From an uncultured Actinomycetota bacterium (lineage in GTDB: Bacteria > Actinomycetota > Actinomycetes > Mycobacteriales > Jatrophihabitantaceae), in assembly GCA_963850835.1 (NCBI GenBank), contig CAWKNB010000021.1, positions 8,525 to 72,524 of the forward strand: a stretch of DNA of 64,000 nt. The letters are read 5' to 3'. Both the position numbers and the translations under genes were made by a program. The notes below the pieces were generated by a model that was not told the DNA's origin, did not search any database, and saw only the letters and a program-made list of their open reading frames with translations. Of the stretch, positions 7,362 through 49,992 are shown in pieces. Numbering within the stretch: position 1 is the stretch's first letter; each line of letters starts with the position of its first letter.

Positions 7362-8701
7362 AGCCGCACGCTTCGGACTCGCCCAGTCACGGCTCGAGCT
7401 CCGCCGGTGACCCGTACGTGCCCGACAGCGGCAACGGCGGCTACCGGATCACCCGCTACGAACTCGACCTCACCTACCGAATGAGCAGCAATCTGTTGCA
7501 CGGACGCGCTCGGCTGTTCGCGGTGGCCGGTCAGTCGTTGTCGCGATTCACCCTCGACCTCGCCGGTCTGCGGGTGGCGAAGGTCAGCGTGAACGGACAC
7601 CGGGCGCATCGCTTCAGCAACCGGGGTCGCAAGCTGCGTGTGTGGCCGCATCAGCCCGTGAGCGTCGGCGCGACCTTCACCGTCGACATCCAGTACTCGG
7701 GGAACCCGCGACCGCTCCGTGGTCCGTGGGGCGAACTCGGCTGGGACGAGCTCACCGACGGTGCGCTGGTGGCCAACCAGCCCAACGGCGCGGCGTCGTG
7801 GTTCCCCTGCAACGATCACCCCAGTAACAAGGCCAGCTACCGGATCACCGTCACCACCGATTCCCCGTATCGCGTCGTCGCCAACGGCCGCCTGCTGGAC
7901 CACACGGTGCGCGGCAGCAACACCACGTGGGTCTACGACCAGCCCGAGCCGATGGCCACCTATCTCGCGAGCGTGCAGATCGGCCAGTACGAACTTCTCA
8001 ACGTCGCCAAGAAGCCGGTGCGACAACAGGCGGCGTTGCCCCAGCGCCACCGTCAGGAATTCGCGACTCGGTTCGGCCGCCAGCCGGAGATGATGTCAGC
8101 CTTCGAGAAGCTGTTCGGTCCATTTCCTTTTCCGCAATACACGATCGTAGTCACCGACGACGACCTCGAGATCCCGATCGAGGCGCAGAGCATGTCGATC
8201 TTCGGCGCCGACATCCTGGGCGACGACGGTGACGAACGGCTGATCGCCCACGAACTTGCGCATCAGTGGTTCGGCAACAGCCTGACCGCGGATGCCTGGG
8301 AACACATCTGGTTGCACGAGGGATTCGCGTGCTACGCCGAGTGGTTGTGGTCCGAGGAGTCCGGCAGTACGTCGGCCGCGCGCCTGGCCGCCCGCCACCA
8401 CGAACGGCTGGCGGGCCTGCCGCAGGATCTCGTGATCGCCGATCCGGGGCCGCAGCTGATGTTCGACGACCGGCTCTACAAGCGCGGCGCGCTGACGTTG
8501 CACGCGATTCGGCGCACCGTGGGTGACAAAGCGTTCTTCGCGCTGCTGCGCGACTGGGTGGCCGCTCACCGACACGGCAGCGTCAACACGGCGCTGTTCG
8601 TGGCGCACGCCGAGCAGTACGCCGAGCGCTCGCTGCGTCCGTTGTTCACCGAGTGGCTCCTCCACAAACCGCTGCCCGCCCTGCCGGCCGGTCGCCGGTG
8701 A
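7358..8701 (+). CDS. M1-family zinc metallopeptidase
   Basis: HELAH...WLHEGFA (HExxH-18-E) and YKRGALTLH. GTG at 7358 overlaps the pls stop (GTGA). Confidence 0.92.
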   Translation: MKPHASDSPSHGSSSAGDPYVPDSGNGGYRITRYELDLTYRMSSNLLHGRARLFAVAGQSLSRFTLDLAGLRVAKVSVNGHRAHRFSNRGRKLRVWPHQPVSVGATFTVDIQYSGNPRPLRGPWGELGWDELTDGALVANQPNGAASWFPCNDHPSNKASYRITVTTDSPYRVVANGRLLDHTVRGSNTTWVYDQPEPMATYLASVQIGQYELLNVAKKPVRQQAALPQRHRQEFATRFGRQPEMMSAFEKLFGPFPFPQYTIVVTDDDLEIPIEAQSMSIFGADILGDDGDERLIAHELAHQWFGNSLTADAWEHIWLHEGFACYAEWLWSEESGSTSAARLAARHHERLAGLPQDLVIADPGPQLMFDDRLYKRGALTLHAIRRTVGDKAFFALLRDWVAAHRHGSVNTALFVAHAEQYAERSLRPLFTEWLLHKPLPALPAGRR

Positions 8702-33245: not shown

Positions 33246-33264
33246 TCTATCGGTATGATAGACA
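33246..33264. promoter_or_regulatory. Palindromic operator copy A (TCTA-N9-TAGACA), overlapping a TATGAT -10
   Basis: TCTATCGGTATGATAGACA, in the divergent region between the carbonic anhydrase and ABC operons. Confidence 0.75.
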
Positions 33265-33270
33265 ATACGA

Positions 33271-33351
33271 GTGAACTCCGGAGCGACGTTGACGTGGATG
33301 ACGGTGGTCGGCCGACCGCGCCACGCAGGCCCTTGTTGTCCGACGTCCTGA
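33271..33351 (+). CDS. Putative Cys-containing leader peptide (MNSGATLTWMTVVGRPRHAGPCCPTS)
   Basis: GTG...TGT TGT...TGA, 26 aa, between operator A and the SBP gene. Confidence 0.5.
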   Translation: MNSGATLTWMTVVGRPRHAGPCCPTS

Positions 33352-42625: not shown

Positions 42626-44003
42626 TCACGAAGCCACCCCGGTGGCGGTGCGGACGGCCGGCAACGGCGCGAGGCCGAGGTGATCGCGAAGTGTCGTGCC
42701 GGTGTAGTCGGTGCGGAAGCTGCCCCGTTCCTGCAGCAACGGGACGACGGTGTCGGCGAATTCGTCCAGGCCGCCGGGAGTGATGTGCGGGACGAGGATG
42801 AATCCGTCGCTCGCGTCCTCCTGGACGAACCGGTCGATGGTGTCTGCCACGGTCGCGGGAGTACCGATGAACGACTGCCGGCCGGTGACCTCGACGATGA
42901 GTTCGCGGCTGGTCAGATTCTGCGCCTCGGCCTTGGCGCGCCACTCGTTGGCCGTCGCGATCGGATCACGGTGCATGCGGACGCTGGCCCGTCCCTTCGC
43001 GATGGTGTTCTCCCCGACGACCGGATCGACCACCGGCAGCGGCCCGTCCGGATCGTGATCGGAAAGGTCGCGGTTCCACAGCTGTTCGAGGAACTTGATC
43101 GCGGTCGCCGGGCTGACCTGCTGCAGGCGTATCTCGCGCGCCTTGTCGGCCGCATCGCGTTCGGAGTCGACCGAGGACGAACGTCGCGGCGGGCAGGATC
43201 TTGAGTTCGTCAGGCTTGCGACCGTAGCGGGGCAGGCGGCTCTTGAGGTCTCGATAGAAGGCCTTGCCGTCACTGAACGTCGAGTGCCGGCTGAAGATCG
43301 CATCGGCACTGGACGCGGCGAATTCCCGGCCCTCGTTCGAGTCACCGGCCTGGAAGATGACCGGATGGCCCTGTGGGCTGCGTGGCACCGGGAACTGCCC
43401 GGAGATGTCGAAGTGCGCGTCGTGATGCTCGAACGTGCCGGCAAGACCGTCGGTCAGGAATCGGCCCGATGCCTTGTCCGCGACGACCTCGTCACCGTGC
43501 CAGGAATCCCAGAGCTCGATCGCGGTCTGCAGGAACGTCCTGGCCCGCTCGTAGCGGTCCTCCTCGGCCAGGAAACCGCCGCGGCGGAAGTTCTCTCCGG
43601 TGAACGCGTCCCAGGAGGTCACGACGTTCCAGGCAGCCCGGCCGGCCGACAGGTGATCCAGCGTGGCGAACTGCCGAGCCACCTCGAACGGCTCGTTGAA
43701 CGTGGAATTGATCGTGCCGGCCAGGCCGAGCCGCTCGGTCACCGCGGCGAGCGCGGACAGGATCGCGAACGTGTCCGGACGGCCGACCACATCCAGGTCG
43801 TAGATCCGACCGCCCTGCTCGCGCAGGCGCAGTCCCTCGGCGAGGAACAGGAAGTCGAACTTCGCCCGCTCCGCGGTCTGCGCGAATTGCTGGAACGAGC
43901 TGAATTCGATGTGACTGCCCGCCGCCGGGTCGCTCCATACCGTGGTGTTGTTGACCCCCGGGAAGTGCGCAGCGAGATGGATCTGCTTGCCGGCCCTGCT
44001 CAT
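42626..44003 (-). CDS. NtaA/DmoA/DszA-family FMN-dependent monooxygenase, frameshift ~43170
   Basis: IHLAAHFPG, AERAKFDFLFLAEGL, PRSPQGHPVIFQAGDS and, after the shift, LQERGSFRTDYTGTTLRDHLGL. Confidence 0.9.
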
Positions 44004-44034
44004 GCATGTCCTCCGGTGCGTTCGGGTCGCCGGT

Positions 44035-45232
44035 TCATGCGGCGTAACGGTTTGACGGCCGCGGCAACCCGAGCCGACCGCGCAGGGTGTCGGACCCGTA
44101 CGCGGTGCGGAACGCGCCACGGCGTTGCAGCTCGGGGATCAGCGACCGGGTGATCCTCGTCAGGTCATCAGGAATCGCGGCCGGTCGCAGCCGAAATCCG
44201 GACAGGCCGACGTGCTGCCACTCCTGCAGCAGATCGGCCAGCTCGGCCGCGGTGCCGGCGAAGATCAGGGCATCGCTGCGGTATTCCCCGCCCGCCGTGT
44301 CGTCCAGGCGACGCAGCCGAGCGCGTGCGGCCGTCGACGTGTCACCCAGGATCACGACGAGATCGCCCCATACGTGCAGGCGCTGGCCCGACCGACCGGC
44401 GGCAGCTGTCTCCCGGCGGATCTCGGTCACGATGTCGCGGGCACTGTCGGCGTTGTCCGGGGTGACGAACACCAGATCAGCGGATGTGGCGGCCAGCCGG
44501 TAGGGGATCGCCTGGTGCGCCAGGAGGCTCACGATCGGTTGGCCCTGCGGCGGCCGTGGCGTGATCGAGGGCCCGCGGACGCTGAACCTCGGCCCGTCGA
44601 AGTCGATGTAGTGCAACTTGTCGATGTCGATGAACCGGCCGGTGCCGGCGTCGCGGATCTCGGCGTCGTCCTCCCAACTGTCCCAGAGCCGGCGAACGAC
44701 CTCCACCCAGTCGCGGGCCTCGTCGAACAGCTCCTCGATCAAACGCTGCGATCTCGGGCCGGTCGCGTTCGGCGTAGCCGAACCTGGGGATCGTTCGGCG
44801 ACCGAAGTGCGCTGCCTCGTGGGCGCGGGCCGAGACCTGCACGCGGACTCCGGCCCGGCCGCCGCTGACGTAGTCGAGCGTCGCGACCGCCTTGGAGAGG
44901 TGAAACGGCTCGGTGTGCGTGACGACGGCAGTGGGAACCAAGCCGATGTGACGGGTCAACGGAGCCACTCGGTTCGCCACCAGCACCGCGTCCAACCGGC
45001 CGCGCACACGATCGGTCCGCGGCTGGGGGCCGGACCAGTGGCCGGTCTGCAGACCGAGCGAGTCCTCGATGGTGACGATGTCGAGCAGCCCGGCTTCTGC
45101 CTCGCCGACCAGATCCGCCCAGTAACCGGCCGTGAACAACTCATCAGGACGGGCCGCCGGCTCGCGCCACGCGGCCGGGTGCCAGCCGGCGCCGTCCAGC
45201 GCCACAGCCAGATGGAACGGATCGCTAGGCAT
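44035..45232 (-). CDS. LLM-class FMNH2-dependent monooxygenase (DszA-like), frameshift ~44744
   Basis: HLAVALDGAGWHPAAWR, TEPFHLSKAVATLDYVSGGRAG, WDSWEDDAEIRD, PRPPQGQP and TLRGRLGL. Confidence 0.88.
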
Positions 45233-47770: not shown

Positions 47771-48674
47771 TCAGGCGCCGACTTCCCGGGGCCCGACGGG
47801 AATGTCGCCGCGCAGGGTGATGCGGTGCATGACGCGACGGAAGTCGGCGTAGTTGAAGTCGGCGTAGTGGGCGGTGCTGCGGTTGTCCCACATGACGACG
47901 TCACCGGGCTGCCACCGGTGCCGGACCATGTGTTCGGGCTTGGTGACGTGCGCAAAGAAGGCGTCGAGCAGACCGCGGCTCTCCGCGTCACTCACGTCGC
48001 GGATGCGGGTCGTGAAGCCGGGATTCACGAACAGTGAGCGTCGTCCTGTCTCAGGATGGACACGCACGACCGGATGAGGGACGGGCTTGAGCTGACGTAC
48101 GGGTTCGCCATCCCACTCGTTGCCCTCGCCGCCACGTCGCTGCTCGAGGTAGTCGGCGAACTCGCGGCTGCCGTCGTGTTCGGCGGTGAGTTGATCCGCG
48201 AGCTCACGCATCGCGGGATGCAGCGAGTCGTAGGCGGCCTCGAGGTCGACCCAGTTCGTGTTCCCGCCTACGGTCGGGATGTTCACGGCGCGCAGGATCG
48301 ATGCCATCGGTGGACGCGGCATGAACGTCACGTCGGTGTGCCACACGTCCGAGCGGCCGCCGTCGAGGCTGTCGAGTTCGTACACCTCGGGATGGTCGGG
48401 TGTCGCGCCCGCAACGACGGGATGCGACACCGTTACTTCACCGATGGCCCGGCCGAGTTCGATCTGGCTGTCGTCGTCGAGGTCCTGTGCGGAGAAGAAC
48501 AGCACCTTGTGCTCGGCGAGCAGATCGCGCAGCGCTCGCGGCATCGCCCTGCGCCACGACGTCACGTAGATCGACTCTGCGGATGCGGGCGGCGAACGAC
48601 GGGACCAGTCGCTCGATCGACCATGTCGACGCTCGGGTCGGTTCGCCGACATCGGTCGTGTGGATGGCGGTCAC
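47771..48674 (-). CDS. tauD: TauD/TfdA-family 2OG-dependent dioxygenase, frameshift ~48545
   Basis: EHKVLFF, WHTDV (HxD), HPVVRVHPETGR, WDNRSTAH and RVMHR. The N-terminus is in the 48438..48674 frame. Confidence 0.88.
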
Positions 48675-48690
48675 AACTCACCTCGCAGGT

Positions 48691-48719
48691 TTGACTTCGC
48701 TTATGTCTACAGAGATTAT
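48691..48719 (+). promoter_or_regulatory. Sigma70-type promoter TTGACT-N17-GATTAT, predicting a leaderless start at GTG 48727
   Basis: -35 at 48691-48696 and -10 at 48714-48719, with a 7-nt spacer to the GTG. Confidence 0.6.
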
Positions 48720-48725
48720 AGACAT
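48703..48725. promoter_or_regulatory. Palindromic operator copy C (perfect ATGTCTA-N9-TAGACAT)
   Basis: ATGTCTACAGAGATTATAGACAT overlaps the -10, in the divergent tauD / ABC region. Confidence 0.8.
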
Positions 48726-48726
48726 T

Positions 48727-48804
48727 GTGAGTGAGACTCGGCGCCGGAGCGGCTGCGGTTGTCCGCGTCGGCAGATCGGCGCGGCCTTGGGCTGTCGACG
48801 CTGA
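48727..48804 (+). CDS. Putative leaderless Cys-containing leader peptide (MSETRRRSGCGCPRRQIGAALGCRR)
   Basis: 25 aa with 3 Cys, starting at the predicted TSS. Its stop lies inside the hairpin at 48800-48837. Confidence 0.65.
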   Translation: MSETRRRSGCGCPRRQIGAALGCRR

Positions 48805-48899
48805 TCAGGAGCAGTTCTCCTCACACCTTCGATCAGCTGTGCAGTGGGTGCCGCACCCGCGCCCAATGAATTCGCAAACTCCCACGGAGGAACCCGTCC

Positions 48900-49992
48900 A
48901 TGCGCAACTCGTCAACCAGAGCGTTCGCCTCGTCCGGCCGAGCGAGACTGATGCAGGTGGCCGCGCTCGCCAGCACAGCGATGTTGGCGCTCGCGGGATG
49001 CAGCTCGTCCGGTTCGGGCGGCGGCGGCGCTGGTGGAGGTGGCGGAACCGAGGTCGGTGTCGGCTACTTCGAGAGCGCGACGATCGGTCCCGAGGTGCTC
49101 GTGGCCGGCAACGCCGACCTTGCCGGCAAGGTCGGCGGCAAGCTCAAGCTCACGCCGATCGACTCGGGCGTCACCGGTCTCGCGTCGCTGCGCGGCGGCG
49201 CCTTCCCGTTCGCGTCCGGCGTCGGCAACCCGCCGGTCACGGGCGCCATCGCCAACGACACCAAGCTCAAGGTGGTCTTCGCCGAGTACTACGACGCCGC
49301 CCAGCTCATCGTCGGGTCGAAGATCAAGGCAAACGCCGACCTGGCCGGCAAGACGGTCGGTGACCTCCAAGGCTCGTCCGAGGACTACGAGATCCGCGGT
49401 TGGTTGAAGACGCAGGGGCTCGACGGCAAGGTCAAGGTCGTCGGCTTCCCCAGCGAGCAGGCCGTCGAGGCCGCATACAAGTCCGGCCGCATCGACGGCG
49501 GTTACGTCGAGATCGCCCAGGCGCAGGAACTGTTGAAGAACACCGTCGAACCGCACCGTGGTCACGGCCCAGCAGATCGCCAAGCTCGGCTACGCCTCAC
49601 TCAACGTGTTGGTGGTCACCGACGCGTTCGCAAGCAAGAACAAGACGATCGTGCAGAACCTGGTGTGCCAGATGATCAAGGCGCAGGCGAAGGTCGCCGG
49701 TTCCGACGGCGACACCTACATCACCAATGGCTCCAAGCTCGTCGGCGCGACACCTGCGACGGCCATCGCCGCCACCAAGGGCCTGCCGTTCGTGTCGGCG
49801 CAGGACCAGCTGACGTGGTTCGGCACCTCCAAGGATGCGTCGAACAGCAAGATCGCCGACTCCTACGTCAAGACCGGTCAGTTCCTCAAGGAGCAGGGCC
49901 GCGTCACGAGCGTCCCGACGAAGGCACAGATCGGTGCGCACATCGACCCGACCTACGTTCAGCAGGCGGTCAAGGACGGCTGCGGCTCGTGA
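48900..49992 (+). CDS. Taurine/sulfonate ABC substrate-binding lipoprotein (TauA-like), frameshift ~49550
   Basis: Lipobox LAGC, LRGGAFPFASGVGNPP and DLAGKTVG, continuing in the 49558 frame. SD GGAGG. Confidence 0.82.

Follow-up and report, generated by a model that had tools for sequence, protein, structure and literature searches.

A candidate leaderless cysteine leader peptide, diverged from its family, upstream of a taurine-type importer operon in Jatrophihabitans

How cysteine supply might govern sulfonate import was considered for a 64,000-nucleotide (nt) stretch of a contig from an uncultured actinobacterium of the Jatrophihabitans lineage, here called the window. Upstream of an operon for a taurine-type ATP-binding cassette (ABC) importer, tauABC, lies a 25-codon open reading frame (ORF) with three Cys codons. 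We interpret the ORF as a diverged member of the leaderless Cys-sensing leader peptides of actinobacteria, one that would add a second, ribosome-read layer of control to tauABC, now or before the operon decayed, over a repressor-type operator; we give this interpretation a probability of roughly 0.62. A preliminary description of this DNA had proposed, ahead of the operon, an operator and a leaderless leader ORF that senses Cys in the manner of the mycobacterial attenuators, and the comparative evidence below supports that proposal. Moreover, direct reading of 48301 to 49200 found the promoter, GTG, ORF, hairpin arms, TTCTCC segment, and Shine-Dalgarno (SD) sequence that it named, all on the plus strand and where it had placed them. 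The elements of the leader region are as follows.

48691 to 48696, plus strand: −35 hexamer TTGACT of the tauABC leader promoter (direct reading and promoter scan)
48714 to 48719, plus strand: −10 hexamer GATTAT, 17 nt after the −35 hexamer and 7 nt before the GTG (direct reading and promoter scan)
48703 to 48725, no strand assigned: operator-like perfect inverted repeat ATGTCTA-N9-TAGACAT, which spans the −10 hexamer and ends 1 nt before the start codon ("operator C" of the preliminary description)
48727 to 48804, plus strand: 25-codon leaderless-type leader ORF, MSETRRRSGCGCPRRQIGAALGCRR, with GTG start at 48727 and TGA stop at 48802 to 48804
48800 to 48837, plus strand: hairpin spanning the stop codon, with outer stem GCUGAUC (48800 to 48806)/GAUCAGC (48831 to 48837) and inner stem AGGAG (48807 to 48811)/CUCCU (48817 to 48821), in both the minimum-free-energy (MFE) and the centroid structures
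48805 to 48885, plus strand: C-rich, G-poor spacer from the stop of the short ORF (sORF) to the tauA SD, including the G-free CU tract UUCUCCUCACACCUUC at 48815 to 48830
48886 to 48891, plus strand: tauA SD, GGAGGA, 8 nt before the ATG at 48900

The promoter of the leader was the single site returned by a promoter scan of 48300 to 49300, where 0.1 was expected. The TTGAC of its −35 hexamer was invariant in a five-sequence alignment and was found upstream of all related leaders checked, and the geometry of the promoter would place the start of transcription at the G of the GTG at 48727. The Cys codons of the ORF are Cys10 (TGC, 48754 to 48756), Cys12 (TGT, 48760 to 48762), and Cys23 (TGT, 48793 to 48795); none are adjacent, and they form a Cys-Gly-Cys motif plus a lone Cys two codons before the stop. 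A sulfur/cysteine operon lies 3′ of the ORF in the same direction, which is the location required of mycobacterial Cys leaders by Canestrari et al. The operator was kept in every Jatrophihabitans locus examined, five without the sORF included, and a related palindrome was found at L002, L004, and L003. A strict-pattern search with the operator core gave a single site genome-wide, from which no regulon could be derived. We note that the half-sites are like those of the corynebacterial McbR-type operator (TAGAC-N6-GTCTA), but their order and spacing here are GTCTA-N9-TAGAC, and the repeat was not assigned to McbR. The double control suggested in the preliminary description is plausible, with the operator as the constant layer and the leader as an optional one.

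What is kept in the leader is best seen in the closest relative of the locus, L065, which was found by protein search followed by contig look-ups and encodes a TauA 85% identical to that of the window. The 34 nt of promoter and operator, TATGTCTACAGAGATTATAGACATTGTGAGTGAG, are identical at the two loci. The L065 sORF, MSEAQHRTGRSCRRQRVGTVPCCRR, likewise has 25 codons and is 69% identical in nucleotides to the window ORF with no indel. Cys12 (TGT), Cys23 (TGT), Arg24, Arg25, and the TGA stop are unchanged, and Cys10 is replaced by Arg. Conservation of the Cys codons in orthologous leaders, proposed earlier as a test, therefore holds for Cys12 and Cys23 but fails for Cys10. The spacers of the two loci are 42% identical. 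A further relative, L067, has the leader MSRESSAAPCRRFLSPGSACCRG, with a mid-ORF Cys at residue 10. Across the lineage of the window, L065, and L067, the leaders thus retain their start and length, along with an internal Cys-Arg-Arg and a (Cys-)Cys-Arg at the C terminus, and the rest drifts.

Leaderless-looking sORFs were found at the same position, before tauA or before tauD-tauA, at 14 other loci in Jatrophihabitans, Frankia, Pseudofrankia, and Frankiales metagenome-assembled genomes (MAGs). The 15 leaders, ten of the tauA type and five of the tauD-tauA type, start 6 to 7 nt after the −10 box and run for 16 to 28 codons. In each, a Cys codon falls one to six codons ahead of the stop, and the usual ending is Cys-Arg(-x)-stop. 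The leaderless-type geometry, an RTG (ATG or GTG) closely preceded by a −10 box and by a consensus-like −35, is shared by all 15 loci (in the 13 leaders measured, a −10-like hexamer lies 6 to 7 nt upstream of the RTG). Organism names recorded for orthologous loci assign the window to Jatrophihabitans. Two genomes of the same genus, G012 (locus L002) and G002 (locus L004), have the promoter in common with the window and carry the leaders MSRASQWVGHRGPTSFAPVCAACCR and MTIMGAVGRTAFHCCR, respectively. Leaders before tauA are well kept in Frankia, Pseudofrankia, Frankiales MAGs, and soil metagenomes (MGDSFRGTRRRFVDLGRIGTDLCRR, MIEFRGTRRRHVDLGRITTTTCRI, and MKTEFRGTRRRHVDLGHVTSASCPVTMC; further members of this set are MMTGFRGTRRRHVDLGRVTNMMCCAARR, MKSEFAGTRRRHVDLGRVTSMICCPPAR, and MMLEFRGVRRRHVDFVRICATFCCR). 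Where tauD and tauA are co-directional, as in one genome of a different genus and four further Jatrophihabitans genomes, the leader precedes tauD; an example is MTRRPLLVRRRYVDFKRLTGALCRP. Consecutive Cys codons are present in the orthologs L002, L004, L065, L067, L052, L054, and L055, and the first four of these combine an intact tauA with a kept Cys-Cys-Arg ending. When eight tauA-type leaders were aligned with MAFFT, the promoter, the ends of the sORF, and the SD came into register, and the spacer was unalignable.

The relatives appear to be translated. Within their RRxVDL core, third codon positions vary at seven of seven sites versus four first and two second positions, and pairwise codon differences number 224 synonymous versus 96 nonsynonymous. 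Such synonymous-biased variation is the signature expected of a translated sequence. Cys codon choice is also skewed: TGT accounts for 24 of 32 Cys codons in 18 leaders (the window, L002, L004, L034, L036 to L039, L043, L045 to L047, L052, L054, L055, and three more in this genome), with at least one TGT in every leader, and its share of Cys codons in the long ORFs of this genome is 14.8%. In Mycobacterium tuberculosis, a single tRNA-Cys(GCA) reads both Cys codons (PMC13096801). A rare, wobble-read TGT would plausibly lengthen the pause of a ribosome.

Chance levels were set with 35,620 RTG-to-stop ORFs of 15 to 30 codons from the six frames of this genome. At least three Cys codons were found in 4.9% of them, consecutive Cys codons in 3.0%, and a Cys-Arg or Cys-Arg-Arg ending, which is present in the window, L002, L004, L065, and L047, in 1.2%. 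A strict pattern of −35, −10, and an RTG 5 to 8 nt downstream occurs 63 times in the 4.97-Mb genome, and at two of the 63 sites it opens an 8- to 45-codon ORF with consecutive Cys codons or a C-terminal Cys. One of the two is the window ORF. The other, MPGSFRALTCAR, lies upstream of rpsL on the minus strand of contig C4 (approximately 8191 to 8229 in reverse-complement coordinates) and is probably due to chance.

The same genome encodes recognizable members of the family elsewhere. A leader before a sulfite reductase gene (sirA-like; contig C12, plus strand, approximately 856088 to 856162), MAHAAPMLTSRRHIDLLRVATATC, scored 40 bits against the "putative leader peptide" model NF042934, and one before a rhodanese/thiosulfate sulfurtransferase gene (contig C11, plus strand, approximately 370205 to 370324), MSVALAPASMPVTVPVPVALTSRRAVDLCRVRSCLCRAA with the C-terminal part LTSRRAVDLCRVRSCLCRAA, scored 27.5 bits, both above the cutoff of 27 bits. 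Neither is annotated, and both were recovered by a hidden Markov model (HMM) built from ten related leader peptides. Judged by sequence, the two leaders constitute a Cys "ribulon" outside Mycobacterium. The peptides of the tau-type relatives match NF042934 at 14 to 27 bits and the Cys-rich leader families Ms5788A (NF042933) and Ms4527A (NF042936) more weakly; the leaders that match these three models come from Frankia, Frankiales MAGs, and other Jatrophihabitans, at positions upstream of tauA or tauD. With NF042934-type leaders the window peptide has its length (about 25 residues) and a C-terminal Cys in common. Where those leaders have the core RR(H/Y/F)VD(L/F)xR, however, the window peptide has SGCGCPRRQ, and only the C-terminal Cys-Arg is kept.

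The nearest known system is that of Mycobacterium smegmatis, in which polycysteine leaderless sORFs act as attenuators of operons for sulfur and cysteine metabolism (Canestrari et al. 2020, bioRxiv 10.1101/834739). The mycobacterial Cys ribulon (Ms5788A/Rv0815A, Ms4527A/Rv2391A, Ms4533A, Ms5280A, and Rv2334A) resembles the system described here in consisting of unannotated short ORFs with an RUG start, leaderless in mycobacteria and predicted to be so here, and with Cys codons near the 3′ end, placed in cis before sulfur or cysteine operons, with several leaders per genome. The M. smegmatis set includes leaders without an RRxVDL core, Ms4533A (MHSAGAMGSHVVVLPAAAGFCVADAHCCR) and Ms5280A (MKARTGIKGCCRAQ) (bioRxiv 10.1101/834739). 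Ms4533A leads a sulfate ABC importer, and its ending, AHCCR-stop (bioRxiv 10.1101/834739), resembles those of Jatrophihabitans leaders (FHCCR-stop in L004, and AACCR-stop, PCCRR-stop, and GCRR-stop). Canestrari et al. define such leaders operationally by two or more Cys codons in a row (bioRxiv 10.1101/834739). Unlike the mycobacterial leaders, the predicted leader of the window has no consecutive Cys codons, its host is Jatrophihabitans, and its putative target is a tauABC-type importer. The mechanism demonstrated for Ms5788A is a duplex between the Cys tract and the SD; no such duplex is predicted for the window leader, and pairing of the Cys tract with the SD region was absent from the window ensemble. 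The classical attenuators trpL, hisL, ermCL, and cat are alike in that a ribosome on the regulatory codons of a short leader ORF sets downstream expression. They differ in that neither a terminator/antiterminator pair nor an intrinsic terminator was found for the window leader, initiation would be leaderless, and the sensor may be a single rare codon by the stop.

How a paused ribosome might be read out is suggested by the spacer. The ratio of C to G in the spacer is 1.61 (80 nt, 48805 to 48884), and 3% of the intergenic upstream regions of this genome reach 1.6. The spacers of 15 related leaders range from 1.23 to 2.11, compared with a median of 1.03 across the 1,694 intergenic upstream regions taken as the null, and a CU-rich tract about 10 nt after the stop is also found in L065. 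As an observation of its own, the spacer after the sORF of L004 (1195 to 1225, Jatrophihabitans MAG G002) contains three tandem C-rich units of 10 nt (CCTACCCCGA) with a local C/G of 3.4. Rho utilization (Rut) sites are described as C>G biased in one report (PMC13650167). Because a C>G bias is a loose hallmark of Rut sites, the spacer hints at Rho-dependent attenuation as a reasonable candidate read-out, and Rho loading on the spacer seems somewhat more likely than SD occlusion. Conditional termination by Rho coupled to upstream ORFs (uORFs) in M. tuberculosis (bioRxiv 10.1101/2022.06.01.494293) is alike in having a translated uORF and, between it and the main gene, an untranslated stretch rich in C and poor in G; the likeness of the window leader is one of composition only, and that paper does not mention cysteine leaders.

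We propose the following course of events. Transcription would begin at the G of the GTG at 48727, and a 70S ribosome would initiate on the mRNA without a leader. When Cys-tRNA is scarce, the ribosome would pause at a rare UGU, at Cys12 and above all at Cys23, two codons before the stop. A ribosome at Cys23 would cover the stop codon together with the 5′ arm of the 48800 to 48837 hairpin and would remain at the head of the spacer, a position that would favor tauA expression at both the transcriptional and the translational level. With ample Cys, the ribosome would terminate and leave, and expression would be attenuated on the naked spacer. We speculate, with little confidence, that tau-type leaders form a subclass that does not hide the SD, in which a single rare UGU two or three codons before the stop is the sensor, the paused ribosome blocks Rho loading at the head of the spacer, and the operator completes a two-input (AND-type) control of sulfonate import. 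If so, the Jatrophihabitans copies would show that the RRxVDL core is dispensable for sensing.

The leader stands between two divergent genes, as follows.

48900 to 49992 (end approximate), plus strand: tauA-like gene for an NMT1-family substrate-binding lipoprotein (Pfam NMT1_2), with ATG at 48900
47771 to 48674, minus strand: divergent tauD, taurine dioxygenase family (Pfam TauD, 2.1e-63), with GTG start at 48674 preceded by GAGGTGAG (N terminus by inspection)

Downstream of tauA are genes for an ABC ATPase and then a permease, and luciferase-like monooxygenases, a flavin mononucleotide reductase, a nitroreductase, and a glutathione S-transferase-like gene are also nearby. By its predicted products, the neighborhood is a sulfur-scavenging cluster. 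On the minus strand, the −10 hexamer of the leader reads by inspection as TATAAT (48720 to 48715), a candidate −10 for the divergent tauD. The tauD promoter may sit inside the same operator, and one bound protein could then shut both promoters. Several genes of the cluster are frameshifted in this assembly. By tblastn, tauA passes from frame 3 to frame 1 at approximately 49537 to 49550 (a frameshift near 49540), and the gene has a single-base indel relative to G012. The ABC permease gene (tauC) has at least three single-base indels relative to G012 between 51150 and 51410, tauD has one frameshift near 48540, likewise with indels relative to G012, and two luciferase-like monooxygenase ORFs at 42966 to 45232 have apparent frameshifts. 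Elsewhere in the genome, rpoB, rpoC, fusA, and tuf are all intact. The frameshifts point either to decay of the sulfonate cluster or to a locally error-prone contig. Since the operon under control looks broken, the practical importance of the leader in this genome is limited.

A number of results weigh against a functional Cys-sensing leader in the window. The window peptide matched no NCBIfam or Pfam model at E ≤ 10, NF042934 and its 27-bit cutoff included, and has neither the RRxVDL core nor consecutive Cys codons. The window sORF was also absent from the matches listed at E ≤ 100 when the HMM of ten leader peptides was run against the six-frame translated genome, and inspection by eye of its other two frames, for alternative frames or assembly indels, found no RRxVDL. 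Because there is no model match, no core, and no consecutive Cys, we call the ORF a diverged positional ortholog, and not a recognized family member. Relative to L065, we counted 14 nonsynonymous and 2 synonymous codon changes, so most residues of the peptide body seem unconstrained. Five loci of the Jatrophihabitans lineage (J. endophyticus, J. fulvus, L063, L064, and L066) have the promoter and operator without an sORF, with 5′ untranslated regions estimated at roughly 50 to 90 nt, and thus the leader appears dispensable. At the J. endophyticus locus (L003/L062, approximately 1321 to 1403), TTG-CTT-TGT-CGC-CCG ("LCRP") stands directly after the −10 box in frame with tauA and looks like the deletion scar of a leader. 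Moreover, no intrinsic terminator was found on the plus strand from 48300 to 49300, partition-function folding of the 15 leaders, with a ribosome mask placed on the first Cys, last Cys, or stop, gave no consistent change in accessibility of the SD or start codon, and the C>G skew is but a loose hallmark of Rho sites. Finally, given the frameshifts in tauD, tauA, and tauC, the leader element may be a relic in this genome. The sORF would then descend from a real leader peptide and now be inert, in a decaying operon with any remaining regulation left to a repressor at the operator. We regard this account as improbable, yet serious. The lost core and the fast-evolving peptide body speak for it, as do the five loci that dropped the sORF and kept the operator and the contrast between the frameshifted tau and monooxygenase genes and the intact housekeeping genes. 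Against it, the start, exact length, stop, Cys12, Cys23, and Arg-Arg have been kept relative to L065 without indels despite 31% nucleotide divergence, the four relatives with an intact tauA hold on to their Cys-Cys-Arg endings, rare TGT codons are retained, and the frameshifts could be local assembly errors. That the ORF is there by chance, its Cys codons and hairpin meaningless, might be argued from the ease with which frames stay open in DNA of 68 to 70% G+C, from the roughly 4.9% of random short ORFs with at least three Cys, and from a leader that folds like its shuffles and a peptide that matches no model. The comparative data come close to refuting it: position, length, and C-terminal Cys-Arg are conserved across several genera (15 loci), a graded peptide series connects the window to recognized leader families, and the genome holds one other such ORF behind a comparable promoter.

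Two further alternatives place the control in RNA structure. In the switch of the preliminary description, a ribosome at the stop frees an anti-SD, TTCTCC (48815 to 48820), and expression is switched off by its pairing with the tauA SD, while stalling at Cys-Gly-Cys keeps the hairpin and leaves the SD free. The complementary segments exist, with six base pairs between TTCTCC and GGAGGA, although TTCTCC is a short CU-rich segment of low information. Folding predicts the hairpin, which on its own (−14.3 kcal/mol) is modestly more stable than expected by chance (z = −2.16; 6 of 200 shuffles as good). The whole leader, however, showed no excess stability versus shuffles (z = +0.17). Base-pair probabilities were computed for the free leader and with 27 nt masked, the ribosomal A site being on Cys10, Cys12, Cys23, or the stop. 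A mask at Cys10 raised the probability of the hairpin to 0.88 (outer stem) and 0.62 (inner stem), as the switch would have it, and both the conservation of Cys12 and the CU-rich tract in L065 and the mid-ORF Cys at residue 10 of L067 are in its favor. The probability that TTCTCC pairs with GGAGGA was nevertheless 0.071 with the ribosome at Cys12 and 0.000 in the free leader, at Cys10, at Cys23, and at the stop, where the model needs the pairing, and forcing that pairing cost 5.7 kcal/mol relative to the MFE. The predicted partner of the SD is the adjacent CUCC at 48879 to 48882 (probability, 0.31 to 0.61; about 0.57), and the accessibility of the SD stayed at 0.22 to 0.25 across ribosome states. 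It showed no consistent ribosome-dependent change in the 14 related leaders, was flat in L065 and L067, and no structural switch could be derived from mask folding of the 15 leaders; ribosome-governed exposure of the SD, for which RNA folding had been proposed as a check, was thus not supported by the folding. The GCUGAUC/GAUCAGC and AGGAG/CUCCU stems of the hairpin are both absent from L065 with its dissimilar spacer; by eye, L002 and L004 have no CUCC-type anti-SD. The logic also fails, because a terminating ribosome leaves the mRNA and does not hold it open, and the best-conserved Cys, Cys23, lies two codons ahead of the stop, where a stalled ribosome would open the hairpin and give the wrong sign. 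We consider the switch very unlikely. Control of tauA by a riboswitch or other known structured RNA in place of a translated leader is more improbable still. The 5′ region of about 170 nt would offer room for one, and an Rfam scan of 48400 to 49200 at E ≤ 10 gave matches below threshold, the best being Tymo_tRNA-like at 19.9 bits (gathering threshold, 40; E = 0.11). No Rfam family reached its threshold, however, the spacer is unconserved even in L065, and the leader as a whole is no more stable than its shuffles. Small local hairpins do recur at the Cys and stop codons of the related leaders (z, −3.3 to +1.0), with no convincing conserved element among them.

A diverged leader peptide read by the ribosome would carry cysteine attenuation of this kind outside Mycobacterium, adding Jatrophihabitans and Frankia as hosts and a taurine/sulfonate-type ABC importer as a target. 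The leaders also form a natural series for dissecting what Cys sensing needs: some have the full RRxVDL core, some have lost the core and kept Cys-Cys-Arg-stop, some have a single Cys, and at some loci the leader is deleted and the operator kept. Clues to the read-out of the pause are offered by the strong preference for TGT and by the spacers, which are C>G in every case. Moreover, current leader-peptide HMMs overlook diverged members, and synteny recovers them.

The tauD-type leaders have a structure of their own. Just upstream of the SD in L036 (294 to 391), and in the matching stretches of L037, L039, and L038, are two hairpins. Pairing in the second (CGUGC-loop-GCACG) is preserved in L038 through two double changes, and this may be a conserved expression platform that has no counterpart in leaders of the window type.

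A second uORF with consecutive Cys codons, both TGT, lies in the window at 33271 to 33351 (MNSGATLTWMTVVGRPRHAGPCCPTS) before another ABC operon. It matched no NCBIfam model. Its GTG is 11 nt after a TATGAT −10 box, and for that reason the uORF is probably not strictly leaderless. A repeat at 33246 to 33262, TCTATC-N5-GATAGA, has the same geometry as the 48703 to 48725 operator, TCTA-N9-TAGA, with the −10 box beginning 5 nt after the left arm in both cases. The inverted repeats at the two Cys-uORF promoters of the window look like a shared repressor operator.

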